In this document: piece after piece, positions 5,566-30,907 of the stretch
Layout: each line of letters opens with the position of its first letter
Numbering within the stretch: the first letter of the stretch is position 1
NCBI GenBank assembly: GCA_002421785.1
Contig: DIRZ01000003.1
Coordinates: 90,001 to 122,000, forward strand
Direction: 5' to 3'
Length of the DNA stretch: 32,000 nucleotides
Source of the DNA: Candidatus Saccharimonadota bacterium
GTDB lineage: Bacteria > Patescibacteriota > Saccharimonadia > Saccharimonadales > Saccharimonadaceae
Notes under the pieces: model-generated
What the model was told of the DNA's origin: nothing
The model's input: only the letters and a program-made list of their open reading frames with translations
The model's database searches: none
Made by a program: the position numbers and the translations under genes

Positions 5566-6283
5566 GGTTTCGTCCTCTGTTTTCTATCAACACCTTCACG
5601 GCCTGTTCGATCTTGCGTCGTTTTGTTGCTGGTAATAGTAGATTTATTTCGTCGTTATTCTGAGATTCTGTGGCATCCGCCCCAAGCAATGCCTTGAGCT
5701 CTGTAGCGTTTAACCAGTCTGGCATTACCGTATCCTGCAGTTCGCCATCAATAACCATCAACGAATCCTTAGGGAGTAATTTTTTGTACTGTGCTTCGTA
5801 ATGCATCGTGGCGTCCCAATTCATCAATTCTTGATTTCGTGTTCCGCGCGCAAGCCTTTGCATAAGAACGCGGGGCGATGATAGGCTAAATCGCACGAAC
5901 CCATAGTGCGCATCGGGCAACTGCAAAAAATCATTAAATATTTGGCGACTAATTCGCAGACCTTTTTCATATTCGCTGGTTTCAATCATGCCATTGGCAT
6001 ACCTGAGCGAGTAAAAAATAAGCGATGATAACGGCGTGAACCGATCGGCGTAGACACGACCGTTTGGCGGGGCTATCGACTGCAAGCGCGCATTTTCCAT
6101 AACTGTAAAAAAGTAACTACAATACGCCATACTTACCGCATCGACTGGAGCGTCCGGAAAATTCATATCTCCACCTAAAAACTCACTCGATTCGGCAATG
6201 CATAAGGAATGCTCGCGCTGCTGATTCAAGTAGGTTGTTTTACCGGAGAATGCAGGTCCTTCGAGAAAAAGTATCTGTTTCAT
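5552..6283 (-). CDS. P-loop kinase-like protein (deoxynucleoside/nucleotide kinase fold)
   Basis: Walker A LEGPAFSGKTT is at the N-terminus, followed by YADRFTPLSSLIF, which is like the (D/E)R(S/F)...F motif of dNK/TMK-fold kinases. Its ATG overlaps the upstream stop (ATGA). Confidence 0.55.
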   Translation of the reverse strand: MKQILFLEGPAFSGKTTYLNQQREHSLCIAESSEFLGGDMNFPDAPVDAVSMAYCSYFFTVMENARLQSIAPPNGRVYADRFTPLSSLIFYSLRYANGMIETSEYEKGLRISRQIFNDFLQLPDAHYGFVRFSLSSPRVLMQRLARGTRNQELMNWDATMHYEAQYKKLLPKDSLMVIDGELQDTVMPDWLNATELKALLGADATESQNNDEINLLLPATKRRKIEQAVKVLIENRGRNHENA

Positions 6284-7611
6284 CTCTTAATCCTATAAAG
6301 CGTAATGCCGGCCAAGATACCACTTGCACTGATCTTTTTGGGTGGCTGCGTGTACGCGTACTCATGCAGCGTGTTGATATGTGACGCCACATCGCCAGTA
6401 TCGATCGACGTTAGGGCATCTTGCCCTCCCGTTGAAGATGCTTTTCCGTCATCCAAAAGCACGATATCGAGAAGCGCATGCCGGGCTGCAGCTTCCACGA
6501 TGGATGCATAGCCATTAAACTGGTACGCAAAATCGCCAATGATTGCCATAGCGCGAGAACCGGCATAGAGCGATGCGCCCGCGGCAATTGATAGACTACT
6601 GCCCATACAAAGGCAACTATCAATGAGCCCAAATGAATCACTCGTATACTTCCCTTCATCGCCGATCACAATTGCGTAGTCTTTTTTATTAATCGCTCGT
6701 AATACATCATCCCAGTCATGCATTACCGGAGCTATGCCCTCATGTATGAATGAGGAGTCGATTGCTGGCTCGAGGTTAGACCGAAGGGTTCTTTCGGCAT
6801 AGTTCGATCCACGTTCGCGTATCGTCAAGTGGGGCTTCTCAGAAAAAAGCGTGCAAACGGCCGCAGGGATTGGATAGTGCTGAATGGTTAAAGCATGCTG
6901 AGTTGGTTGTGCTGCACCAAATACAATGCCGTCAACGTCCTGAACTGAAGACGCTGTATACTGTTGTGCCACATACGCACGAATTACTATTTGCTTTTTT
7001 TCAAATCGTTCAACACGGTCCGACCATGCACCGATTGATTTTTGACGTAGCTCAAGGCGAGGCATCACCGCAGGCGGCGTAGCATATACTGTTCCTAGGT
7101 CGTCAGTATCAACGGGAGAGCTACTTTGTAGTAGATCGTAGGTTATGCGAAGAATAATCGGAACGTCAAGTTGCTCAGAGAGTTCAAACACATGAGCAGT
7201 CATGTTGACGGCGGACTGTATTGTTGCAGGTTCAAGAACTAGTGTGTGGATATAATCATTAAGTACTCGTGAATCAATGATTTCCGGCGATGAGTGTGCG
7301 ACAGTATCTTCAAGTACGACGATGACCATTCCGCCCCCAACCCCATTGATTACCGCATGGTGAATAGAGTCGAGTGTTGCTGCCAGTCCAACACCTTTAA
7401 AAATTGTCACGCTCCGACCACCTACTAAGGATGCGCCGTATGCAAACTCAAATGCATTACGCTCATTGAATGATGGCTTGACGTTCTTTACTATCGTGTG
7501 AGCAAGTAGGTCGCCTCTCATTCCAGGGTAATAGTACACAACCTCTGCGCCTGCGGATGCGAGGCTAGTGCCGATATGCCGAAGATTCATGGCGACCGTG
7601 TCAAGTTTCAT
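6280..7611 (-). CDS. ThDP-dependent enzyme related to indolepyruvate:ferredoxin oxidoreductase alpha subunit (IorA-like), lacking the ferredoxin domain
   Basis: The N-terminal half aligns by eye with the IorA/PFOR pyrimidine-binding domain (YYPGM...NERNAFEFAYGASLVGGRSV..FKGVGLAATLDS...GGGMVIVVLEDTVAHSSPEIIDSR). The C-terminal half has a ThDP-binding motif (IIGDFAYQFNG...LLDDGKASSTGGQ). There is no CxxCxxCxxxCP cluster. Confidence 0.7.
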   Translation of the reverse strand: MKLDTVAMNLRHIGTSLASAGAEVVYYYPGMRGDLLAHTIVKNVKPSFNERNAFEFAYGASLVGGRSVTIFKGVGLAATLDSIHHAVINGVGGGMVIVVLEDTVAHSSPEIIDSRVLNDYIHTLVLEPATIQSAVNMTAHVFELSEQLDVPIILRITYDLLQSSSPVDTDDLGTVYATPPAVMPRLELRQKSIGAWSDRVERFEKKQIVIRAYVAQQYTASSVQDVDGIVFGAAQPTQHALTIQHYPIPAAVCTLFSEKPHLTIRERGSNYAERTLRSNLEPAIDSSFIHEGIAPVMHDWDDVLRAINKKDYAIVIGDEGKYTSDSFGLIDSCLCMGSSLSIAAGASLYAGSRAMAIIGDFAYQFNGYASIVEAAARHALLDIVLLDDGKASSTGGQDALTSIDTGDVASHINTLHEYAYTQPPKKISASGILAGITLYRIKR

Positions 7612-7612
7612 T

Positions 7613-9112
7613 TTAGATGCTCCGTTCTATAGTAGGAGTTAAGTGCAATCTCTCAGATACTAACGACTCGTAGAGCGCAGCCATCATTTTGACAGGGACA
7701 TCGTAGGTAGTGATGCTGTTGCGAACGATGACGGTATCGCGGGTGTGCTTGCCTCCGCGTATATCATGGCACCCTTCCAGGAACTCGTTTATCATCACAT
7801 GCTTCGCTAGCTCATTTGATAGTTTCGAGGATTGGCTTGCGTACATGTCGTCGATGTCAACCGAACTGTACACCTGGAGGGCTGGCTCATTTTCACCAAA
7901 CATTTCACTGTTTCGAAAGACATAGATATCAAAATGATTCTTGCCACCAACAGAGTAGCTCTCGTCCCCGGTATCAGTATCGTGCTCGTCAACTGCCTGG
8001 TAATTATGGATCTGTATACACTGGAATGGGCCTTGTTCGATGACGTAGGACTGGTGTTTGACGCGACCGTTTCCTTTATATAGATCTGTCGCTGGTACTC
8101 GCCAGCTCCGCTTGCTAAAGCTACTGTGCAACAGGTTGACGCCAATCAATGCCGTAGCAAATCCCTCTCGCTTCATAGTTATATTTGCCATGATATCTAT
8201 TTCGCCAAAATTTTTCATTGACTTTTGATAGTGCTCTAGGTTGTGCAGCGTGGTGTATTTTCCGAAATAGTCACGGTAATCATCGGGCGTTATGGAAGAA
8301 ACATAGCCATTCGGATAGATTGCGCTGGCATAGGCTACTAATGTATCGGGCATCTTCACTTTAGGGGTGCCGTGCTCGAGGAACTGCCACGCGATGTCGA
8401 GCACGTGGAAACCGCTATGGGAAAGTTTGCCGTAGCCAGTATTGTAGGGGTGCATTGTCTGATGCATTATTTCATCTGGAAAGATCCATACACCGTCACT
8501 ATGAAATGCTTGTATCGATGTGACCGGCATATTAAACGTGTTGGCCACCTCGCTCAACTTTTCAAATACAAAGTTGTACCCTGACTCGTATCGTCGTTGG
8601 GTGCTGAGGCAAAAAAGCGATCGACTTTCGTGATATACGTCCATGAGATCTCTGTAGTCTTGCTCTATAAGCTGAAAGGCTCTGGAATTGCTGACGGCAC
8701 CATCTCGAGTTGACACCGGTTTGTCCATGAGAATATGAAGATCATGAGCTAATGCCCACTTTGCATAATCGACATGGTGGGTGGGGTCTGTGGAGATAAT
8801 GACTGCAGTAAAGTCATATGCCTTAAGTAGCTTGCGAGAAAGCGCAATATCGTTAAATGGCTGCTTGCACTCTGTTGGGTTAAGATAATAAGTGTCGACC
8901 CGCTCTGTATAGTCGCGTTCAAGCAAATATTGTGCAATGCTTTGCGCGCTTTGAAAAACGTCCAGGATAACAACCTTGCAGTGCGCAATTTGCGAATTAT
9001 TTATTAGCTCAGGTATATAGATGCGTCGTGCATGGTGACCGGCACCGATGACAAGGACAGCCGGCTGCCTAGTCTTGTCTTGCTTTTTCGATAGATGATT
9101 CGCTATACTCAT
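7613..9112 (-). CDS. Gfo/Idh/MocA-family NAD(P)-dependent oxidoreductase
   Basis: N-terminal Rossmann motif VLVIGAGHHARRIYIPEL, plus the family signature IISTDPTHHVDYAKWALAHDLHILMDKPV (I.TP...H......AL.AGKHVL.EKP). It has a long, non-canonical C-terminal domain. Confidence 0.75.
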   Translation of the reverse strand: MSIANHLSKKQDKTRQPAVLVIGAGHHARRIYIPELINNSQIAHCKVVILDVFQSAQSIAQYLLERDYTERVDTYYLNPTECKQPFNDIALSRKLLKAYDFTAVIISTDPTHHVDYAKWALAHDLHILMDKPVSTRDGAVSNSRAFQLIEQDYRDLMDVYHESRSLFCLSTQRRYESGYNFVFEKLSEVANTFNMPVTSIQAFHSDGVWIFPDEIMHQTMHPYNTGYGKLSHSGFHVLDIAWQFLEHGTPKVKMPDTLVAYASAIYPNGYVSSITPDDYRDYFGKYTTLHNLEHYQKSMKNFGEIDIMANITMKREGFATALIGVNLLHSSFSKRSWRVPATDLYKGNGRVKHQSYVIEQGPFQCIQIHNYQAVDEHDTDTGDESYSVGGKNHFDIYVFRNSEMFGENEPALQVYSSVDIDDMYASQSSKLSNELAKHVMINEFLEGCHDIRGGKHTRDTVIVRNSITTYDVPVKMMAALYESLVSERLHLTPTIERSI

Positions 9113-10753: not shown

Positions 10754-12844
10754 CTACTTCGAGCGCTTTTCGATGATTTCCTGTGCCACGTTTGGTGGTA
10801 CTTCTTCGTAATGCGCAAGCTCCATCGTGCTTGCAGCGCGGCCTTGGCTCATACTGCGGATATCGCCGGTATAACCAAACATGTTTGCGAGTGGGACAAT
10901 CGCTTTCACAAGCTTCGCGCCACCCATCAGGTCTTCCATGGCATCGATACGTCCACGGCGGCTGTTAAGGTCACCGATGATGTCGCCCATGAACTCTTCT
11001 GGCGTAGTTACTTCAACATGCATAACAGGTTCGAGGATAATTGGCGTTGCACGCTTCACACCTTCACGCGCCGCAATACTACCAGCCAGTTTAAAGGCCA
11101 GTTCGCTTGAGTCAACATCGTGATAGCTACCGTCGTACAGTGTCGCTTTGACGTCGACTACTGGATAACCGGCAATCACACCGCCATACAATGTTTCAAC
11201 GATACCCTGCTCGACAGGCTTGCGGTATTCTTGTGGCACCACACCACCCTTAATCATGTCGACGAATTCAAAGCCCTTGCCCACTTCGTTCGGCTCGAAG
11301 CGTACCCATACGTCACCGTACTGGCCACGACCGCCGGATTGCTTGGCGTGTTTACCCTGAACTTCAGACGTGCCCTTAATGGTTTCACGGAAGGCAACCT
11401 GTGGCTCACCGACGTTCGCTTCGACGTTAAATTCACGCTTCATGCGGTCAATGAGGATTTCGAGGTGAAGCTCGCCCATACCAGACATAATCGTCTGACC
11501 GGTTTCGTCATCGGTGTGAACGCGGAAGGTTGGGTCTTCTTCGGCAAGTCGTTGCAGGGCGATACCCATTTTTTCCTGGTCAGCCTTCGTTTTAGGCTCA
11601 ACGGCGATAGAAACTGGAGGATCTGGGAATGTGATCGCTTCAAGCGCCATTGGGTGCGCAGGGTCTGTTAGTGTGTGCCCCGTGAATGTGCCCTTTAGCC
11701 CCACGACAGCAGCAATGTCGCCCGCACCAACTGAGTCGATATCTTCACGCTTGTCGGCGTGCATACGCACGATACGGCCAACGCGCTCTTTTTCGCCCGT
11801 TGTTGTGTTCAAAACATAGCTACCGGCGGTGAGTTTACCTGAGTACACACGCACAAAGATAAGCTTACCGACAAATGGGTCGGTCGCAAGCTTAAAGGCA
11901 AGCGCGGCCATTGGTTCTTTGTCATCTGGCTTGCGACTTACTTCATCGCCAGTTTTAGGGTTTTTGCCCCAAATGGCGTCGATGTCTAGTGGGCTTGGCA
12001 GGTAGTCAGCCATAAGGTCGAGAACCTTTTCGACAATCACGCCGCGGCCATCGCCACCAGTTACAAGGTAAAAGTCACCAGCAAGAACTCGCTTGCGAAG
12101 CGCAGCCTTTAGTTCGTCAATTGTGATCGAATCTTCGCCCTCATCGAAGAACTTCATCATCAGTTCTTCATCAGCTTCCACTGCGTTTTCAACCAGCAGG
12201 CTGCGTGCGTTTTTAGCTTTTTCGAGCATGTCTGCAGGAATTTCGCCAACGACAAGTTCGTGATCGGTGTAGTCAGTGTAGGTGTAGGCCTTCATATCAA
12301 TTAGGTCAACGACACCATTGATATCCTTTTCGAAGCCAATTGGCAGGTGAATTGGGAACGCCTGTTTGCTGAGGCGAGTACGGATACTTTCGAGGCTCTT
12401 GTAGAAGTCACCCCCGGTCTGGTTGATCTTGTTAACAAAACAAATACGTGGAACGCCGTACTTGTTGGCTTGGCGCCATACGGTTTCAGACTGAGCTTCA
12501 ACGCCCATCTTGCCGTCAAACACAGTGACAGCACCGTCAAGCACGCGAAGACTTCGCTCAACTTCGGCCGTGAAGTCAATGTGCCCCGGGGTGTCGATGA
12601 TGTTGATTTTGCAGCCCTTCCAGAAACAGGTTACGGCAGCGGAAGTAATGGTGATACCACGTTCTTTTTCTTGTGCCATCCAGTCAGTTGTTGCGCCGTC
12701 ACCGTCACCTCGAACTTCGCCGATCTTGTGATTGATACCAGTACGGTAGAGGATTCCTTCTGTCGTTGTTGTTTTACCGGCGTCGATGTGTGCGATAATA
12801 CCGACGTTACGGAAGTCCTTTAGCGGGACATTTGTTACTGCCAT
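10754..12844 (-). CDS. fusA: Translation elongation factor G
   Basis: 696 aa with [29 protein letters not shown]-type G motifs and full EF-G domain architecture. AGGAG lies 4 nt upstream of the ATG. Confidence 0.98.
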
Positions 12845-12890
12845 ATGGCTCCTGCTCTCTTTCGTTTTATAGATAATTATTATTTGCCAG

Positions 12891-12911
12891 GTTTTCTAGG
12901 CATTAGAAAAC
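12891..12911 (-). promoter_or_regulatory. Perfect 8 bp inverted repeat in the fusA 5' untranslated region
   Basis: GTTTTCTA-ggcat-TAGAAAAC lies between the candidate fusA promoter (12926-12934) and the fusA SD/ATG. Its function is unknown; it could be an RNA hairpin or an operator. Confidence 0.5.
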
Positions 12912-12925
12912 AGCACTTAGGTCGA

Positions 12926-12934
12926 AGTATAGCA
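12926..12934 (-). promoter_or_regulatory. Extended -10 promoter element TGcTATACT upstream of fusA
   Basis: The minus strand reads TGCTATACT about 80 nt upstream of the fusA ATG, in the 125 nt gap after cassette gene D. The -35 is weak (TAGTAA at 17 nt). Confidence 0.5.
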
Positions 12935-12969
12935 CATTTCGTAGCTATTTACTAGGAATAGACTGCAGG

Positions 12970-13548
12970 CTATTCGCCTGGCTGGAGCCGTTTCGATATC
13001 TCAACGGTTGGGTCGGATATGGAAACGACAATATATGGTGAGCTGATGTCATGTGGGTCGAACCCATCAATCTCAAGTCGCGGATCGGTCAAGATAAGCG
13101 CTATATCGTACTCATCGTCGTTGATGCCTCTTCCCCCAACCATCGCATCAAAAGACGGCATCGGTGCGATAGCAACGTGGTTGAATGTGCCGACGACCCA
13201 CTCACCTTCGACAACGTTCTCGCAGGCGATTCCTGACTCAGTAACATAGAAGGTAAATGCACCCTCGCCGACAACAACAGTATCACCTGAAGTCAACTCA
13301 GAAAGCCTCGGTACATCCGCTCGGTTGAGCATCACCTCGATGAATTGGTAGTCCTCGGGCCGAAGAGGAACTCCTGGCTCTGCCTCAAGAGAAGCCTTCA
13401 CGTGGTCATTAAACGCGCCACGAAGTAGCTTCATGTCATCGCCCAGCGACACGGCAATATGTTCACCCCGGGTATCAATCCCAAGTTCTTCTGAAAGACC
13501 GCCGACTATTTCAAAAAACGAATTGTCATCTGGTATGTGCTCACGCAT
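12970..13548 (-). CDS. Hypothetical acidic protein D (192 aa) of the rpsG-fusA cassette
   Basis: Long ORF on the same strand as its neighbours. ATG 13548 lies 1 nt after the stop of gene C (TAAtATG). The tracked TTG start at 13569 would overlap C. It shares an N-terminal peptide and module motifs with B and C. No known family was recognised. Confidence 0.75.
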   Translation of the reverse strand: MREHIPDDNSFFEIVGGLSEELGIDTRGEHIAVSLGDDMKLLRGAFNDHVKASLEAEPGVPLRPEDYQFIEVMLNRADVPRLSELTSGDTVVVGEGAFTFYVTESGIACENVVEGEWVVGTFNHVAIAPMPSFDAMVGGRGINDDEYDIALILTDPRLEIDGFDPHDISSPYIVVSISDPTVEISKRLQPGE

Positions 13549-13549
13549 A

Positions 13550-15781
13550 TTAAAACGCCATCTCCTCAAGCGTGCTTAGTGGTACGACATATCGTGCAAC
13601 GACATCGTTTCGCTCCGGTGTAGGCACACGCATGACAAGGGCAATCTCGCTGGTCTTTAGGAACGGGTGCTCAGTGACGACGCCATCGAGAGTCGCAAGG
13701 ATCTCCTGGCCGAGGATGTGCTTAGCGGAATCATCAATAAATGGCCCCGCGATTCGGAGTGTGCGTCCTGCGCCCAAAATCGCCTCGAGCGCATCAGCTG
13801 CCACGTCCATAGCACTGGGATTATCGTGAAATGCAAGGGCGATATCACGAAGCCCCTCGACACCATCAAACTCAGTCATCTCTGTCTGAGGCTCGCTGTC
13901 GATTGCTCCCGCAAGATACTCGAGATTCTTTTGTAGCATTTGTCGCGAAGACTGCGCGATATCAAGTTTCGCGGTTCGGGCGAGCGCTTCGCTACGACGG
14001 GCGTCATAATCAAGACTCGGGAGAGAGTATCCCGCAGGAAGTCCGAGGTCAACAACGAACCGTCGCGCCGCGTTTATCGTCACCATAGATGCGTTAGTGT
14101 CAGGATCTGTAATCGTAATCGTATTATTCCCATGCCCGAGATCGATAAACTCAAGATACGCACGGATCACGTGTTGTTCATCATCCTCACCATAAGAGCG
14201 TGTTTGAACATTAGCCTCAGCGAGGATTCCCTTTGCACTGCTAAATACATCTGGGGAGCTTACGCCAAATCCCTTTACTTGTATATCAAGCGTCTGTGAC
14301 TCTTGATCGATCACACGACTAAAGGTAGCCTCGGGAATCCTTAGCGCTGGGCCAATGACCTCGATAACAGGGTTCATGTCCGTTTGCCACCGTTGAAAGA
14401 ACGCTGAAATTCGATAATTGATCATCTCGTAGTCGTCTGCAATCGCCGCCTTGCTCGGATACGGTCGCTCGGCCTCACTTGAGGCATATTGGCGAACTAT
14501 TTCATGTAGTCCATGCAACTCAGCGAGGAACTGTCGCTGCCTCTCTTTTTCATCCTCGGGTATATCCTGTTCACCATCTCTGTCACTCGCCTCATCTGCG
14601 TGCTCGACGCTGGTCATTGAAGCTGCGTCTATCACTGCCTCACCTAGCCGTTGTTCAAGTGGTCGCACTCCAAAATTGCTGTCGAACTGCTCATTTGGCT
14701 GAATAATCGTATCTTCATCAAATGGATACGCACTCGTCTCCGGACGGTTAGCCGTCAGCCGTGTGAGGCTATCGATAGGGATATATATTGGGGTACGTCC
14801 ACCTTGCGCCTCTGGTACGAGGTACCACGTCTCGAGCGTGGGACGGTAAGTGATGAGCGTTTGACCTTCTGCTGTATCAGGCGTCGGAAAAAGACGTACA
14901 TTGCTAATGAGCAGCTCACGGAGCGTTCCATCATATTCTTTGGGCACTTTCGCATATGTCATCGTACGTCCATAGATGACACCTCGAACGACTGCGTCGT
15001 AAGTTGCATTGTCAAATGCGAGTCGATCGGTGATATACGTTTCAATCAGGTCGAGCACTTCATCGTCACCCATTGTCGTGTCAGCTTTTGACACATCAAA
15101 TGTCACGCTAAAGTCATCGAGAAGTTGACGGATAAGCTCAGGATCACGGCAGCCATCTGGCAACGCCTGAACTGCAGCGAATACTTCGGGGAAATTGGCG
15201 CGCACAAACTCCTCAGCACCTTCACGAGAGGGTTGGTGTGGCTCCATATACTCGATGTCGTCGGGGCGACTCGTGAACCACACTTGTCCATCCTCGTAGT
15301 CTTCGTCGAGACCATATTGCATCACGACGCGGTACATTGATCCATACTCACCCATTGGAACTCTCTCGACGTCAAAGCCTTTGACGATCGCCCGGAACCC
15401 TGCCGCATCAAAATATTCTCCGAGAAGATCTTCTTTGCGCTCGCCGATTCCAGGAAATGCGCCTTCATGGGCGTCGTCAACAACATTCTCATCGAGCGCG
15501 TATTCAGTTGGTCGGAGTCGTCCGGTTACCTTGATTGCTTCGTCGCGAAATCCAAGCATATCCCAATCACCGTTGAGATTGAGGAGTACTTCTTGGATGG
15601 TGTCTTCTGACGGGTTAGTCGCAAAATTCAGTGCGTCTTCGGCGCTTTTTGCATCGTGTATAAGACGGAGGATGCCCGGGTCAATCGTGTCACGAAGACT
15701 CGGTTCGGTCTCCCATGTGTTTTTGATGAGCGCATCAAATGCATCGTCATCGTTAGAGTGTGGCTGTGACTCTCGTATCAT
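13550..15781 (-). CDS. Hypothetical acidic multi-module protein C (743 aa) of the rpsG-fusA cassette
   Basis: An uninterrupted 2.2 kb ORF; the only competing ORFs are short antisense ones. It has no TM or signal sequence, is rich in D/E, and shows repeated sequence patterns shared with B and D. No known family was recognised. Confidence 0.8.
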   Translation of the reverse strand: MIRESQPHSNDDDAFDALIKNTWETEPSLRDTIDPGILRLIHDAKSAEDALNFATNPSEDTIQEVLLNLNGDWDMLGFRDEAIKVTGRLRPTEYALDENVVDDAHEGAFPGIGERKEDLLGEYFDAAGFRAIVKGFDVERVPMGEYGSMYRVVMQYGLDEDYEDGQVWFTSRPDDIEYMEPHQPSREGAEEFVRANFPEVFAAVQALPDGCRDPELIRQLLDDFSVTFDVSKADTTMGDDEVLDLIETYITDRLAFDNATYDAVVRGVIYGRTMTYAKVPKEYDGTLRELLISNVRLFPTPDTAEGQTLITYRPTLETWYLVPEAQGGRTPIYIPIDSLTRLTANRPETSAYPFDEDTIIQPNEQFDSNFGVRPLEQRLGEAVIDAASMTSVEHADEASDRDGEQDIPEDEKERQRQFLAELHGLHEIVRQYASSEAERPYPSKAAIADDYEMINYRISAFFQRWQTDMNPVIEVIGPALRIPEATFSRVIDQESQTLDIQVKGFGVSSPDVFSSAKGILAEANVQTRSYGEDDEQHVIRAYLEFIDLGHGNNTITITDPDTNASMVTINAARRFVVDLGLPAGYSLPSLDYDARRSEALARTAKLDIAQSSRQMLQKNLEYLAGAIDSEPQTEMTEFDGVEGLRDIALAFHDNPSAMDVAADALEAILGAGRTLRIAGPFIDDSAKHILGQEILATLDGVVTEHPFLKTSEIALVMRVPTPERNDVVARYVVPLSTLEEMAF

Positions 15782-15787
15782 GAACTA

Positions 15788-15821
15788 ATTAAATAGAGAT
15801 GCGCCCCTGTTTGCAAGCATA
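15788..15821 (-). promoter_or_regulatory. Promoter-like element with conserved 11-mer upstream of gene C (TATGCTTGCAA; TTGCAA, 17 nt, TTTAAT, 6 nt, ATG)
   Basis: The minus strand reads TAG-cgctTATGCTTGCAAacaggggcgcatctctaTTTAATtagttcATG. There is no Shine-Dalgarno. The same 11-mer occurs upstream of gene B. Confidence 0.5.
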
Positions 15822-15825
15822 AGCG

Positions 15826-16815
15826 CTAGAATTGTGGTGGCGTCGGTGTATCATATCGCGCTGAACTCATCCAGGCGATTGATGTACAGGGAATGATAAG
15901 TTCTCGCTCAGAGCCATTTGGTTCATACGCAGTCGCTTCGATAAACGGTACACAGCGGTGCGTGCCCTTCAGTTCCTGCGCGCGAATATCAGACGGACGC
16001 AATTCGACGTCTTTGACCCTCATCGTCCGTGTGTACGGATAGCGCAAAACCACAGGAATACCATCGCCGTTATCTTTGACGGAGATACACTCGCCCGCAA
16101 CTGAGATATGGTAATTGACATGCGGATCGATTTCCGCGCGTGAACGAAGATATTGTGCCGCATCGCGGACGTGCTCAAGTTGTTCTTCGTCACTCAAGTT
16201 TGCTTCAAAGACAAACTCACCGAAATCTTTGATAATCTGATCGTCGCGACGGCTGGTAAATGCAAGTTCATCAATAGTATTTGCATCCTCCGGGTAATAA
16301 TACGCGAATCGACGCTCTCGTAGCTCGGGGGACGGAAATGGTAGCTCGATACCTGCGAGTTCCTCAAGGGGGAGAACAATAGGCATCCGAGTGCCATCAC
16401 CTTTTCCGGCGTCTATTTCCACAAGATGCGATATTTTCGGGAAATGATCATTTGATTGCTCGGTCGAATCAGTGAAAAATATGAAACCGCGAGAAATTGC
16501 TTCTTGATCAACGTACGTCGAGGACTGCATTTCGGGTAATCCTGGGACTACCGCCCAACCACGGCCGCTGACTGTCACGGGCATATTCATATATCGCCAC
16601 CTCGCATCGAGCTGCTGTACATGAGCCTGTCGGATCGAAAGAGGGTCGATCTCGGTGTCGGTGAGCATCGATGTTGCTACTATCTCTTGACGAGAGAGTG
16701 CTTCACTGTGTATTTCTTCTAGATATGGATCACCAAGCTGTGGCTCTAGTCCATCGGTCATCTCGCGAAATATATCGTCAAAGTCTGGATGCTTACTGCT
16801 TGGTATCTCGCTCAT
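15826..16815 (-). CDS. Hypothetical acidic two-module protein B (329 aa) of the rpsG-fusA cassette
   Basis: Long ORF on the same strand. Two internally similar halves are visible: NMPVTVSG...GDGTRMPIVLPLEEL and NYHISVAG...NGSERELIIPCTSI. The N-terminal peptide is similar to that of D. No known family was recognised. Confidence 0.8.
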   Translation of the reverse strand: MSEIPSSKHPDFDDIFREMTDGLEPQLGDPYLEEIHSEALSRQEIVATSMLTDTEIDPLSIRQAHVQQLDARWRYMNMPVTVSGRGWAVVPGLPEMQSSTYVDQEAISRGFIFFTDSTEQSNDHFPKISHLVEIDAGKGDGTRMPIVLPLEELAGIELPFPSPELRERRFAYYYPEDANTIDELAFTSRRDDQIIKDFGEFVFEANLSDEEQLEHVRDAAQYLRSRAEIDPHVNYHISVAGECISVKDNGDGIPVVLRYPYTRTMRVKDVELRPSDIRAQELKGTHRCVPFIEATAYEPNGSERELIIPCTSIAWMSSARYDTPTPPQF

Positions 16816-16823
16816 AGATTACT

Positions 16824-16858
16824 ATTTAACCCCACCGTGGCTTCTCGTTGCAAGCATA
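16824..16858 (-). promoter_or_regulatory. Promoter-like element with conserved 11-mer upstream of gene B (TATGCTTGCAA; TTGCAA, 18 nt, TTAAAT, 8 nt, ATG)
   Basis: The minus strand reads TGA-tactaccTATGCTTGCAAcgagaagccacggtggggTTAAATagtaatctATG. There is no Shine-Dalgarno. Confidence 0.5.
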
Positions 16859-16865
16859 GGTAGTA

Positions 16866-17603
16866 TCAGGCGGCTGTTCTGCTATCTATCTCACGTGTCG
16901 GAAAATGCGTCGTTAAATCCGTCATCTGATAGTGCATGATCGGCTGGAGCCACCTGGCAACATCGGTGGCACTATCAAGATCACCCGTATACTCAAGCCT
17001 TAGTGCCTCAAGCGCATGCATCCCAACAACTGCTCTTGTCGACTTTCGGTACGCTCGTCTTAATCGCGCTTCGTCATGCCGATCGGTTATCTCCACAAGT
17101 CGCTCTGCATCGCGTGCAAGTCGCGTCAGCGCTCGATACCCTCTCACGTAACGCTCCATTGGCTCAATACGAGGTACAGTTGTTTCATGGGTGACTTCGT
17201 GGTGTAGGTGGTGAAGCTGTGGTGGTAATATCACCATCTGTGTCCTGAGCTCACGAAATACGAGGGGGATATGAGCGAGCGCCCCCGCATGTTCAAAGTG
17301 GGCGGGATCGTACGCATCCCGTGGCCAATGGACATGATGTCGGTTTGGTGTCGCAGGGTGATTTGATCGTGTCGTCACCACTGGCCATTCGTAGGAATCA
17401 TCGATGAAGCGTTCGACTACCTTTTCCGCAGTCTGACGCGCGAGAACAAACCCCCGGTCATCCGTCACAGGGGCAATACGTCGAAGATGACGTGGATTTA
17501 TTTTCCATACATCAAGTGGAGGCAGATGACCCTCCGGTCCAAACTGACGACTATGCATGTATGTATCGTAACGGATTGTCATCGAATTCGCTACAAAAAA
17601 CAT
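16866..17603 (-). CDS. Hypothetical His-rich protein A (245 aa, or 238 aa from Met8) of the rpsG-fusA cassette
   Basis: ORF on the same strand, 47 nt downstream of rpsG. It contains NRHHVHWPRDAY...FEH...AHIP...PPQLHHLHHEVTHE, which includes an HExxH string. The protein is basic and Arg-rich, unlike B, C and D. The start is ambiguous (ATG 17603 or ATG 17582). Confidence 0.7.
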   Translation of the reverse strand: MFFVANSMTIRYDTYMHSRQFGPEGHLPPLDVWKINPRHLRRIAPVTDDRGFVLARQTAEKVVERFIDDSYEWPVVTTRSNHPATPNRHHVHWPRDAYDPAHFEHAGALAHIPLVFRELRTQMVILPPQLHHLHHEVTHETTVPRIEPMERYVRGYRALTRLARDAERLVEITDRHDEARLRRAYRKSTRAVVGMHALEALRLEYTGDLDSATDVARWLQPIMHYQMTDLTTHFPTREIDSRTAA

Positions 17604-17650
17604 ATCGCCTGCAATTATGCGGGCGATATGTCATGGACGCGGATAGAGAA

Positions 17651-18130
17651 TTAGCCGCGGGCGAAGTGAGCAAACGCGCGGTTGGCTTCTGCCATTTTGT
17701 GGGTATCTTCTTTCTTTTTGAAAGCAGCCCCGGTTTCGTTGTAGGCGTCAACAATTTCAAGCGCAAGGCGTTTTTCATAAGGAATTCCGCTACGGTTTCG
17801 TGCGCTCTGAACGAGCCAGCTAAATGCGTAGTGAAGTTGGCGATGACCGGCAACTGGGAACGGAATCTGGTAGTTTGCGCCACCAACACGACGAGACTTA
17901 ACCTCGAAGTTTGGCGATACATTCCTGAGTGCTTTTTCGAAGACTTCGAGAGGCTCTTCGCTCTTGAGCGTTTTTGCTGCCTGCTCAAGTGCGCTATAGA
18001 CGGCACGCTCTGCAACAAGTTTCTTACCATCAAGCATGCTCTTGTTGATCAAACGCTGCACAAGAACGCTCTGGTACTTGCGATCGGGCTTAATGTTTCG
18101 TTGTAATTTCTTGGTAACTTTCCTAGGCAT
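17651..18130 (-). CDS. rpsG: 30S ribosomal protein S7
   Basis: 159 aa, MPRK...DRKYQSVLVQRLINKSMLDGKK...ANYQIP, typical of uS7. It starts 2 nt after the rpsL stop. Confidence 0.98.
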   Translation of the reverse strand: MPRKVTKKLQRNIKPDRKYQSVLVQRLINKSMLDGKKLVAERAVYSALEQAAKTLKSEEPLEVFEKALRNVSPNFEVKSRRVGGANYQIPFPVAGHRQLHYAFSWLVQSARNRSGIPYEKRLALEIVDAYNETGAAFKKKEDTHKMAEANRAFAHFARG

Positions 18131-18546: not shown

Positions 18547-18793
18547 CTAACATCCTTAGATTACATTGATAATGGTAACTCGCTTGTGGAGTTACGTTTA
18601 CGACGCTGGTCTCAGCATGACCACTGTCGTCTCTATGTTTTGGTTCTGTATGTAGCGTGTACACGTTCACTTCCGCCATATACGTCCAAAATAGGAAACT
18701 CATCGACTATAGTAACAAATTTTACACCTTTTGTCTAGAGCGCTTGCTCTTTATAGCATGAGCGACATACAATAGGGTTAATAAGGAGAATCT

Positions 18794-19813
18794 ATGGACA
18801 ACCAACCAACTACTACAGACTCTGGTAATCATACCTCAAATAACCCGAATACTGGCTCGCCAACAGTGATCACAGCCAGTCCAGGCGGTGATGAGTCACG
18901 CACGTCGGCCGCCCTCGTCGCCGAAAAGAAAAAGCGGCGTTCGCGACCACTGCTCGTAGTACTCCTTGCGCTGCTCATCGCGGTGCTTGGGGGGGTTGCT
19001 ACAATGGCAGTATATACGTTGTATTTTGATACTTCTCATGTAAAGCAGACGTCTCAACCCTCTCAGGTAATAGCCGAGCGAGGACTCTCCGCTTCGGACG
19101 TAATTAGTAGCCTACAGCAAAACATGACTGGCACCACTGTGCCCGAAAGAGCACCTAATCCACCCGCTGTGAAAATTGCGGGGAAGGCATTCTATACACA
19201 ACTTCAGGCAGCGAACAACCTCGTTGCCAGTCGATCCGAAACAGTTACCAGTGCGCAAGCAGATGTCGAGCGCGTGAATCTACTTAAGCTGCTAAAGGAC
19301 CAGGGCTTTGAGGAGAAGAAGATTGCCCCGGACGATACAGAGGTTATCTACCTAGGCGAACTGACCCACAAAGACGTCGTATGCACTTTACAGCAGACTC
19401 GAACGTTAAACAATTCTGCCGCAGATCACCTTATTAGTGTGGCTTGCGCCAATATGATTGACTATACAAAACTCGCAGGTGTGCAGCAGCCTTTCATGAC
19501 CGCTTTTGGAACCGGTGGCTCGGTCTCTATACAGCAAATCACTGCGATAGGAGCACCGACAATTGTCGCATCGTCGACGAAGGGGTATCAAACAGCTGAG
19601 TTACCGCTGATGGGCTATGCTGACGATGGAATGCCCGCCTCGAACGGCTCTATGGCGTTATTTTATCAAACACCCGACCAAACGTGGCACTTCTTCAAGG
19701 CCGCACAAAGTATCGTGCCATGCAGCGAGTACAACTCGGTAGACCTCAAAAAGGCGTACTCGGGCGGTCGCTGTATGGCGCCGAATAATCAAGAGCTTAA
19801 GGTGTCGTTATAA
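18794..19813 (+). CDS. Membrane-anchored protein, paralog 1 (disordered N-terminus, one TM helix, about 260 aa Cys-containing ectodomain)
   Basis: AAGGAG lies 5 nt upstream of the ATG. A KKKRRSR stretch is followed by the hydrophobic segment PLLVVLLALLIAVLGGVATMAVYTLYF. It is clearly similar to the downstream gene, with 4 conserved Cys. No known family was recognised. Confidence 0.85.
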   Translation: MDNQPTTTDSGNHTSNNPNTGSPTVITASPGGDESRTSAALVAEKKKRRSRPLLVVLLALLIAVLGGVATMAVYTLYFDTSHVKQTSQPSQVIAERGLSASDVISSLQQNMTGTTVPERAPNPPAVKIAGKAFYTQLQAANNLVASRSETVTSAQADVERVNLLKLLKDQGFEEKKIAPDDTEVIYLGELTHKDVVCTLQQTRTLNNSAADHLISVACANMIDYTKLAGVQQPFMTAFGTGGSVSIQQITAIGAPTIVASSTKGYQTAELPLMGYADDGMPASNGSMALFYQTPDQTWHFFKAAQSIVPCSEYNSVDLKKAYSGGRCMAPNNQELKVSL

Positions 19814-19815
19814 TT

Positions 19816-20832
19816 ATGCAGCCACAAAATAGCACTCCGCAGCCACCGCTGGGCGAACCCGGCGCCCAGCCCGCCCCCGTCGTGCCAGCAAGCGAAGTTC
19901 ACGACTACCTTCACCCGATTATTGATCAACCAAAACGGACGTATCATCCAAAGGCCTTTCGCACGATACTTATTGTCTTAGTAGTACTTTCGCTTCTTGG
20001 AGTGGGGCTAGCGTTGCTAGCCGCTTACTTGCCTACTGTTTCTGGGCGCACCGCCAAAGAGACGAGTAATAAACCGACCACAACGCTCACAAAAGCGCTC
20101 TCTGCTTCTGAGGCTGTTGCGCGAATGAAAGAGGTATTCCCTGGGACCCTTCCCATCTCGCATAACATTTCGACGCCTGTTAAATTGGAAGGTAACGACT
20201 TCTACACCGTTGTAGCTGACGTCGCACCAGTCGCTGGCCTTGCCGATAATATAGAGTCGTCAAAGGTAATGCCGCTCATTACTAAGCTCGACACGTCGCT
20301 GACGAGCTACGGCATGACCGCCAACGTTATTTCGGACGGAACAGGTGCGGCGAGCTACCAGGCTGATTATTCCCACCCAGACGTACTGTGCCAGATCACT
20401 ACCACAAGAAGCGCTGACTCAAATGCCCCACAGCTGCTTGAGGCGAAATGTCTTGATATTGAAGCCTACCTAGAGGTTGCTTCGACGCAACGACCATTCT
20501 ACAACGTCTATAGCCCCGCCCAAGCGACCAGTAGTGAAGTTGCATTCACCGGAAAGCCCGAAGTGAAAGCAAGTGCTACACCGGGCTATCAGCTCGCTGA
20601 GCTGCCCGTCAGTAGCATTGCTAATGGCCAGATCGTCTCTGCGAGCGTCCGGGCGATGTTCTACCAACCGCCCAGTGGAATCTGGTACTACTTCAAGGAT
20701 CGTGCTCAAAAACTTATCGAATGCGAGCAGTATAATACAGATGTCCTCAAAAACGCGTATGTTGGCCAGCCATGCCGTAGCCTCTCGAAAGACATCGATA
20801 CGACTGTTCCAGCAGTAAAAAAGAAGTCTTAG
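19816..20832 (+). CDS. Membrane-anchored protein, paralog 2
   Basis: It starts 2 nt after the paralog 1 stop. TM segment ILIVLVVLSLLGVGLALLAAYL. Blocks alignable with paralog 1: LSAS.., H.DV.C....TR, GYQ.AELP, FYQ.P...W..FK, .CE.YN...LK.AY.G..C. Confidence 0.85.
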   Translation: MQPQNSTPQPPLGEPGAQPAPVVPASEVHDYLHPIIDQPKRTYHPKAFRTILIVLVVLSLLGVGLALLAAYLPTVSGRTAKETSNKPTTTLTKALSASEAVARMKEVFPGTLPISHNISTPVKLEGNDFYTVVADVAPVAGLADNIESSKVMPLITKLDTSLTSYGMTANVISDGTGAASYQADYSHPDVLCQITTTRSADSNAPQLLEAKCLDIEAYLEVASTQRPFYNVYSPAQATSSEVAFTGKPEVKASATPGYQLAELPVSSIANGQIVSASVRAMFYQPPSGIWYYFKDRAQKLIECEQYNTDVLKNAYVGQPCRSLSKDIDTTVPAVKKKS

Positions 20833-28917: not shown

Positions 28918-28923
28918 ATTTCC

Positions 28924-28951
28924 AGTATACTACCAAATTGGCACTCGTCAA
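28924..28951 (-). promoter_or_regulatory. Candidate clpP promoter: TTGACG, 16 nt, TATACT, 6 nt, ATG (leaderless-type geometry)
   Basis: The minus strand reads TTGACGagtgccaatttggtagTATACTggaaatATG. The -35 and spacer lie inside the CIRCE-like palindrome. There is no convincing Shine-Dalgarno. Confidence 0.5.
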
Positions 28952-30274: not shown

Positions 30275-30282
30275 AATAACGC

Positions 30283-30311
30283 ATTATAACAGATAAGCGC
30301 CCGGCTGTCGC
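30283..30311 (-). promoter_or_regulatory. Candidate tig promoter: GCGACA, 17 nt, TATAAT, 8 nt, ATG
   Basis: The minus strand reads GCGACAgccgggcgcttatctgtTATAATgcgttattATG. The -10 is perfect, there is no Shine-Dalgarno, and the -35 overlaps the pilin gene stop. Confidence 0.55.
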
Positions 30312-30886: not shown

Positions 30887-30892
30887 GAATCT

Positions 30893-30901
30893 ACTATAGC
30901 A
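30893..30901 (-). promoter_or_regulatory. Extended -10 element TGcTATAGT, 6 nt upstream of the pilin ATG
   Basis: The minus strand reads gTGCTATAGTagattcATG in the 21 nt gap after the hisS stop. There is no Shine-Dalgarno. Confidence 0.5.
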
Positions 30902-30907
30902 CAAGCA

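Follow-up and report, generated by a model that had tools for sequence, protein, structure and literature searches.

What reads a short sequence that recurs, at almost the same distance from the start codon, in front of two adjacent genes lodged between ribosomal-operon genes of a Saccharibacterium? The question arises in a 32,000-nucleotide (nt) stretch of a Candidatus Saccharimonadota bacterium (GenBank assembly GCA_002421785.1, contig DIRZ01000003.1, forward-strand positions 90,001 to 122,000), hereafter the window, whose own numbering is used throughout. Its gene order, read along the minus strand, is rpoB, rpoC, two plus-strand genes, rpsL, rpsG, four genes here called A, B, C and D, and fusA. 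The 11-mer TATGCTTGCAA occurs on the minus strand at 16848-16858 and 15811-15821, 32 nt before the ATG of B and 29 nt before that of the adjacent C. A preliminary description of this DNA, which had proposed that the repeat marks promoters abutting the two start codons, gave all of these coordinates and distances correctly. As it also stated, the 11-mer is found exactly twice in the window, and the gaps of 50 nt (B) and 44 nt (C) contain no Shine-Dalgarno (SD) sequence (no GGAG-like motif in either gap, none within 18 nt of either start). A search that permitted one mismatch gave no third match. On comparison with related genomes, we consider it probable that the two sites are promoters of sigma-70 type, from which B(-C-D) and C-D are transcribed without a leader.

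Conservation and Layout of the Sites Upstream of Genes B and C

The same locus (rpsG-A-B-C-D-fusA) was compared in other Saccharibacteria contigs, designated here by L numbers, amounting to about nine diverged alleles whose C proteins are 90, 64, 58, 57, 53, 41, and 40% identical to that of the window. Both gaps keep one layout in every diverged allele examined, namely gcTTAyGC, TTGCAw, a spacer of 16-18 nt, TTWAAT, 6-9 nt, and a conserved ATG without an SD, with CTTG(C) and T(T).AAT invariant across the aligned alleles. The spacer before C is exactly 17 nt long in all nine loci listed (six distinct sequence types), that before B ranges from 16 to 18 nt, and the −10-like hexamer ends 6-7 nt from the ATG of C and 7-9 nt from that of B. 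Pairwise identity among alleles is 0.87-0.88 in the −10 hexamer, 0.73-0.87 in the −35 hexamer and 0.64-0.71 in the upstream 8-nt block, against 0.24-0.38 between the −10 and the ATG and near-random values in the spacer, where C, the comparison of B with C, and the opening 8 nt of the B spacer give 0.23-0.39. Within the B spacer, identity is 0.23 over the first 8 nt and 0.52 over the last 8 nt. Comparing B promoters with C promoters returns the same block-by-block profile, and in L016, where the B protein is 94% identical, the B spacer is completely different and the blocks are retained. Two short blocks held at a fixed distance with free sequence between them are what we read as a classical promoter footprint. 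By our own arithmetic, the chance of finding CTTG, N18-20, yTnAAT, and N6-9 before an ATG in one random gap is of the order of 1e-4.

Two further loci bear on where the motif stands relative to the gene start. In L013 it precedes an upstream in-frame ATG, which we take to be the true start of B. A very distant allele on a metagenome contig, L045 (B 36% identical), has TATGCTTGCAA-17-TTTAAT-7-ATG directly after its A homologue. A pattern scan of metagenomes with TATGCTTGCA-N17,18-TTWAAT-N6,9-ATG gave at least 120 matches; among those listed, nearly all are chance occurrences in unrelated low-GC contigs with short open reading frames (ORFs) after the ATG and L045 is the only true cassette locus, so that the scan is uninformative on any regulon.

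The exact 11-mer, which the preliminary description had taken as the shared signal, is not the unit under conservation. Orthologues show TACGCTTGCAT, CATGCTTGCAA, TATCCTTGCAT and others, differing at 1-3 of the 11 positions, and what is conserved is a degenerate 14-mer, gcTTAyGC-TTGCAw. The identity of 11 nt is specific to this genome and is best read as the overlap of two well-conserved degenerate 14-mers. Each copy of TATGCTTGCAA would then consist of a −35 hexamer, TTGCAA, and the last 5 nt of the conserved upstream block gcTTAyGC.

All elements of both sites lie on the minus strand. Before B, the upstream block ACCTATGC (16854-16861; consensus gcTTAyGC, allele identity 0.64) adjoins the −35-like TTGCAA (16848-16853; identity 0.73, CTTG invariant in eight alleles), and the −10-like TTAAAT (16824-16829; T.AATA invariant in eight alleles) lies 18 nt past the −35 and 8 nt before the ATG at 16813-16815. 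Before C, the block GCTTATGC (15817-15824; identity 0.71 among five lineages vs. 0.35-0.39 in the spacer) adjoins TTGCAA at 15811-15816 (CTTGC invariant in eight alleles), and TTTAAT (15788-15793; TT.AAT invariant) lies 17 nt past the −35 and 6 nt before the ATG at 15779-15781. An in-frame TAA stands two codons ahead of the ATG of B and an in-frame TAG two codons ahead of that of C; with these stops and a conserved M1, the two starts are not in doubt. The −35 forms TTGCAA and TTGCAT resemble TTGACA and keep TTG invariant, and other promoters of the lineage also show cTTGnc at −35.

Because the −10-like TTWAAT ends 6-9 nt before the ATG, transcription is predicted to start at or near the A of the ATG. 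RNA polymerase would begin at this A, or 1-2 nt from it, in a pyrimidine-A-T context; a pyrimidine precedes the ATG in 13 of 15 alleles, and at C the ATG begins on nucleotide 7 past the −10 hexamer. The preferred transcription start site (TSS) has been placed 7-8 bp past the −10 at a Y-R-Y start element (PMC12641261), and the Y-A-T at the B and C start codons fits both the element and the distance.

The likeness of the two sites has a source that the preliminary description missed. BLASTP of B against C returns nothing, and hhalign with small alignments gives a probability of 65%; with broader alignments, B residues 10-320 align with C residues 10-348 over 299 columns at 99.4% (E 7.6e-22). B and the N-terminal half of C are thus ancient paralogs, and both would descend from one tandem duplication that took the promoter along, which would explain why the two promoters are alike. 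Since the proteins are now only 18-21% identical, a neutral likeness would not have survived, and the shared blocks are held by selection. Both copies of the 11-mer would accordingly belong to two paralogous promoters of the sigma-70 family with a spacer of 17 ± 1 nt.

Probable Transcription Units Around the Sites and Predicted Leaderless-Type Promoters in the Genome

The last conserved gene before the variable block, rpsG (17651-18130, minus strand; ribosomal protein S7, Pfam Ribosomal_S7, E 2e-54), is followed by an intrinsic terminator at 17595-17632 on the same strand (GACATATCGCC...GGCGATATGT + TTTTTT), in which an 11-bp stem precedes the T-run. Its fold has an energy of −29.8 kcal/mol (z = −4.2), and none of 200 shuffles folds as well. 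A hairpin and T-run stand at the same place in seven orthologous loci, in different sequences, a conserved feature that supports the earlier suggestion that B and C are expressed independently of the ribosomal genes upstream.

Gene A has a promoter of its own, with a canonical −10, TACGAT (17565-17570, minus strand), 6 nt before an ATG at 17556-17558; its orthologues have TAGTAT-6-ATG and TACAAT-8-ATG, and the A promoter is without the 14-mer. Because no terminator is seen between A, B, and C, the transcripts are probably nested, as A-B-C-D, B-C-D, and C-D, and B and C, being without an SD, should be translated mainly from leaderless transcripts of their own. The leaderless messages for B(-C-D) and C-D would carry D as a gene translated from its own SD, GAGGAG, at 13562-13567 (minus strand) inside the 3' end of C; GGAG is also present in L007 and L009, and the ATG of D lies 1 nt past the stop of C, so that the two are coupled. 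For fusA, the promoter (12926-12934, minus strand) has TGcTATACT as an extended −10, and the leader beyond it spans ∼80 nt and bears an SD; this promoter shows the canonical −10 (TAnnnT) to be the norm in this genome.

The wider habit of the genome was surveyed in a small sample of 46 genes from 52 kb, made up of the window and the 10 kb flanking it at either end. Hexamers of the form TAnnnT peak 6 nt ahead of start codons, in 6 genes vs. a background of about 1.5, and 26 of the 46 genes, mostly internal operon genes and D among them, carry GGAG. Genes without an SD include clpP (TTGACG-17-TATACT-6-ATG), tig (trigger factor; TGtTATAAT-8-ATG), and a pilin-like gene (TGcTATAGT-6-ATG), and a −10 box 6-8 nt before the ATG is likewise found in A and in the SD-less genes for an HTH_38 protein, a phosphatase, and a NUDIX protein. 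Sites with a −10 at the ATG lie at 28918-28950, 30275-30300, and 30887-30905 of the window, at 7274-7300 and 4930-4958 of L018, and at 5844-5865 of L017. For the pilin-like gene, a mechanical ORF list starts at an upstream TTG and the gene call of the contig uses the ATG 6 nt after TATAGT.

This arrangement resembles the group C pattern of GeneMarkS-2, described for Actinobacteria and Deinococcus-Thermus, in which a Pribnow box lies 6-8 nt from the gene start (PMC6028130). The distances found here are 6-7 nt for C and 7-9 nt for B, and the two systems share the absence of an SD, the ATG start, and the mixture of leaderless first genes with SD-led internal genes. As in the TSS maps of Mycobacterium tuberculosis, cluster-internal start sites coincide with start codons, here by prediction from sequence. 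The differences are the host, a Saccharibacterium of the Patescibacteria (Candidate Phyla Radiation), and the −10 of B and C, which is TTWAAT instead of TAnnnT. Set beside a canonical sigma-70 promoter (TTGACA, 17-bp spacer, TATAAT), the B and C sites likewise have two hexamers 16-18 bp apart with free spacer sequence, an invariant TTG in the −35, invariant A-A-T at −10 positions 4-6, and pyrimidine-A-T at the predicted start. They differ in having T instead of A at −10 position 2, in the −35 TTGCAw, and in an additional conserved 8-nt block that abuts the −35 upstream and is not A/T-rich like an UP element. We therefore regard them as an ordinary kind of bacterial signal, a leaderless promoter of sigma-70 type, with two peculiarities left unexplained.

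A literature search found no paper on leaderless mRNAs in Saccharibacteria or Patescibacteria, and the promoters and translation-initiation signals of these groups are almost undescribed. The B and C sites, together with the other genes that have a −10 at the ATG, indicate leaderless transcription in the lineage, much as in Actinobacteria. The B and C sites themselves offer a compact promoter in which one of three blocks is unusual. Gene-start annotation is affected, given that the B start of one orthologue and probably the A start of this genome are mis-called, and the signals are relevant to expression tools for these newly tractable epibionts.

Points Against the Promoter Interpretation and Alternative Explanations

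Several observations weigh against leaderless sigma-70-type promoters at B and C. The repeat is only marginal evidence inside this one genome (p about 0.02-0.12): 5000 shuffles of 24 upstream 50-mers give two upstream regions an 11-mer in common in 11.9% of cases, a figure that falls to 2.1% when the two copies must be in register to within 3 nt, and it is the conservation across genomes that we regard as decisive in taking the repeat as a real signal. TTGCAA agrees with TTGACA at only four of six positions. More seriously, position 2 of the −10 is T, never A, in all alleles (TTWAAT, TTCAAT, CTAAAT); the T expected at position 6 of TAnnnT is present, and shifting the register by one base (TWAATW) does not restore the A. 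No base of sigma-70 −10 elements is more conserved than the A at position 2, and all other leaderless-type promoters recognizable in this genome carry that A. A sigma-70 consensus scan reported neither site, because the scan demands that A. For B, the A of the ATG is the ninth nucleotide past the hexamer, at the long end of the usual TSS distances. In L045 the ATG past the motif opens just 14 codons and the real, D-like ORF begins 29 nt later; this short ORF could be due to a frameshift, the contig being of low coverage, or the short leader could be genuine. Lastly, the literature search gave no transcript 5'-end set for this organism, and the sole start-site set found for the group, from N. 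lyticus TM7x, is RNA-seq-inferred and called noisy in its −10-to-TSS distance (PMC12641261). The view that promoters abut the two ATGs accordingly stands in its geometry, which is kept in both gaps of every allele around a randomized spacer, and is weakened by a non-canonical −10 and a −35 that matches at four of six positions.

Several readings compete over what recognizes the conserved blocks. The preliminary description saw TATGC as a possible regulator half-site; TAyGC does fall within the conserved 8-nt block and an extra element is a reasonable supposition, but a regulator is not favored over contacts by sigma or alpha. The block is neither an A/T-rich UP element nor a dyad. The A-less −10 could itself mean a weak housekeeping promoter offset by its −35 side, dependence on an activator, or another sigma factor, each of which is possible. 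It is conceivable, though on balance we doubt it, that the block and the −35 form the site of a dedicated factor, an activator of class II type or a repressor, that co-regulates B and C and on which a poor −10 makes the promoters dependent. What speaks for such a factor is that in either promoter the block is kept among alleles at an identity of 0.64-0.71, vs. 0.23-0.39 in most parts of the spacer, that the −10 is consistently sub-optimal, and that the block is lacking at the promoter of A and at the genome's other leaderless-type promoters. Class II activator promoters, too, have conserved sequence immediately upstream of and continuous with the −35, and a sub-optimal −10. They differ from B and C in that no known activator and no dyad can be named here (GCTT..GCTT is the only evident repeat symmetry of the block), A-D contain no detectable DNA-binding domain, and the same block stands at the housekeeping gene hisS. 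A position weight matrix (PWM) of the 14-mer, run over 125 kb of Saccharibacteria DNA with a cut-off of 14 bits, found 14 sites at or above the cut-off vs. 1.5 in shuffles, 11 of them the B and C promoters of the training set. Outside that set, three sites vs. 1.5 expected is a slight excess that does not demonstrate a regulon, and only one of the three is promoter-positioned, at the −35 of hisS just outside the window (L018, 7972). A promoter-positioned site of 16.9 bits also precedes an unrelated 195-aa ORF in L010 (TACAGT-6-ATG), and similar 14-mers at the −35 of hisS and of an unrelated L009/L010 ORF argue for a feature that promoters share in general. Either a wider regulon or an "extended −35" in general use is possible. 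Less probable than a dedicated factor is an alternative sigma factor with a consensus near TAyGCTTGCAw-N17-TTWAAT. It would account for a −10 that never has the position-2 A present in all other promoters of the genome and for a −35 region longer and better conserved than a normal hexamer; we know of no alternative-sigma consensus that matches the motif, which counts against it, as does the joining of the same extended −35 to ordinary −10-like hexamers such as TACAGT at the hisS and L009 sites. More speculative again is the idea that the 14-nt block and TTWAAT define a promoter class with its own factor, either a sigma or an activator encoded in the cassette or specific to the lineage, that would switch on the hypervariable, modular cassette of four genes in oral Saccharibacteria, possibly a host-interaction or immunity locus. 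A dedicated factor, like an alternative sigma, is compatible with the promoter interpretation and would refine rather than contradict it. Sigma-54 was rejected: TTGCA is common to the −12 element of its promoters (−24 TGGCAC / −12 TTGCA), but B and C have no conserved GG 10-11 nt upstream of it at −24, and the conserved TTWAAT and its distance to the ATG would be left unexplained.

The blocks could also act in RNA. If a single transcript from the A promoter covered the cassette, TTWAAT and GCUUGCA might serve as SD-independent ribosome or S1 sites or as processing sites, and the lack of a terminator between A, B, and C means that read-through RNA must exist. A/U-rich sequence before start codons can, moreover, enhance translation. 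We nevertheless think this improbable, because a fixed 17 ± 1 nt between blocks with free sequence is the signature of a −35/−10 pair and not of an RNA site, because the A-B and B-C gaps show no RNA structure above shuffles (z −0.8 and 0.0) and no Rfam family, and because other internal genes, D included, use a normal GGAG. That the 11-mer is a functionless coincidence or a neutral remnant of duplication is scarcely credible. The window does contain 401 distinct repeated 11-mers, a shuffle yields a common 11-mer 12% of the time, and B and C are paralogs; yet with proteins ∼18-21% identical and spacers randomized a neutral remnant would be long gone, and the blocks at fixed geometry in every allele effectively refute it. 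Two promoters of sigma-70 type thus remain the reading that we prefer.

Genes A to D

The products of A-D are acidic and cytoplasmic-looking, with no signal peptide or hydrophobic segment obvious by eye, and none has a match in Pfam (also at E up to 10), PADLOC, or PHROGs. Gene A (16866-17558, minus strand) encodes 230 aa of a fast-evolving family from the ATG at 17558. Its annotated ORF (245 aa, from 17603) starts within the rpsG terminator, and with TACGAT 6 nt upstream of 17558 the latter ATG is more likely the true start. A has the His-rich motifs NRHHVHWPRDAY ... LPPQLHHLHHEVTHE (RHHVHWP ... LHHLHHEVTH), which in the L045 homologue read HHISWP ... VPRQMHDYFH. The motifs may resemble those of HNH/His-Me nucleases; A has no match in Pfam or among PDB sequences, and a word-based homologue search with A returned only a 99% copy.

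Gene B (15826-16815, minus strand; 329 aa), the paralog of the C N-terminal half, has an AlphaFold model with a mean confidence (pLDDT) of 83.6 and no meaningful fold match in PDB or BFVD. Gene C (13550-15781, minus strand; 743 aa) has a mediocre model (pLDDT 68) without a Foldseek match. It has 24 close homologues, one from Ca. Saccharibacteria oral taxon 955, in which M1 and E4 are invariant, and 114 representative clusters at 50% identity; the oral taxon, the sole named source among the homologues, points to an oral-type Saccharibacterium (TM7) as the host of the window. A profile scan of the genome contigs with the C alignment found one locus, and a scan of viral contigs found no relative. 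For several proteins of ∼335 aa in the representative library, the match is confined to the C-terminal half of C (residues about 404-744), and C may be a fusion of a B-like module with a second module that is separate elsewhere. Gene D (12970-13548, minus strand; 192 aa) occurs in two unrelated-looking types among the alleles. At L045 (618-1320), the order is A, the motif promoter, a D-like ORF, and then B overlapping the stop of the D-like ORF, which is 24% identical to the D of the window (E 3e-5).

A Mosaic Block Between rpsG and fusA

The promoters in themselves are unsurprising; more surprising is their setting, a strain-variable mosaic between two ribosomal-operon genes. The variable block (12845-17650, minus strand) runs from the terminator through the four genes to the promoter and leader of fusA, and is to be compared with L012 4000-8907. 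Outside the block, L012 belongs to the same species, with protein identities of 99% for rpoC, 98% for the plus-strand genes, and 100% for rpsL, rpsG, and a fusA N-terminal fragment. At the DNA level, identity is 97.4% exactly up to the rpsG stop codon and resumes at 90.5% from fusA codon 3. Inside the block, blastn of the window against L012 finds only ∼200 nt at 68% within C; the B and C proteins are 28 and 41% identical, and A and D are not detectable in L012 by tblastn.

Types of A, B, C, and D are reassorted among loci and do not follow the rpsG tree. The window has A type w, B 1, C 1, and D 1; L007 has A 7, B 1, C 1, and D 2; L009 has A x, B 1, C 1, and D 1; L014 has A x, B 2, C 1, and D 2; and L012 has A x with type 2 of B, C, and D. 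The A-D block is hypervariable and mosaic between strains. Outside the coding regions, only the two promoter blocks are conserved among the compared alleles. As the only sequence conserved between unalignable alleles, lying exactly at module borders, the promoter motif might also, more speculatively, serve as micro-homology for the reassortment of A, B, C, and D modules between strains.

Across the region, no 60-nt stretch is better conserved between the window (15769-15828) and the L007/L008 allele (L008 around 5950-6010) than the B-C gap, whose identity is 0.92 with the spacer included vs. 0.6-0.8 for the coding DNA on either side; constraint could account for this, or the gap could be a joint left by gene conversion or recombination. 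Other alleles carry insertions. L014 (3447-3938) and L015 (2278-2769) have a reverse-oriented pilin-like (N_methyl) gene between rpsG and A, L011 (3568-4200) has an extra 210-aa ORF before A, and in L013 (1493-1657) a 54-aa ORF lies between rpsL and rpsG and A is absent.

Flanking Leaders and Neighboring Genes

The fusA leader (12845-12925, minus strand) contains the inverted repeat GTTTTCTAatgccTAGAAAAC and has no Rfam match. It is nearly identical to that of L009 (about 8880-8966), a different species whose D is also of type 1, and dissimilar to that of the same-species L012; it may have a regulatory role and move together with the cassette. In the stretch 18547-18793 (minus strand), the rpsL promoter reads TAGACA-17-TACTAT with an upstream TG and is followed by a 5' leader of ∼150 nt, which is conserved in the closest relatives and has no Rfam family match.

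The str operon is broken up, with tuf and rpsJ ∼18 kb from fusA and unrelated genes between (L017 429-2566 vs. window 10754-12844). Between rpoC and rpsL, the two plus-strand genes (18794-19813 and 19816-20832) are paralogs of each other (31% identity, E 5e-30) and unrelated to B. This pair evolves fast, with 30-52% identity between species and 98% in the same-species contig L012.

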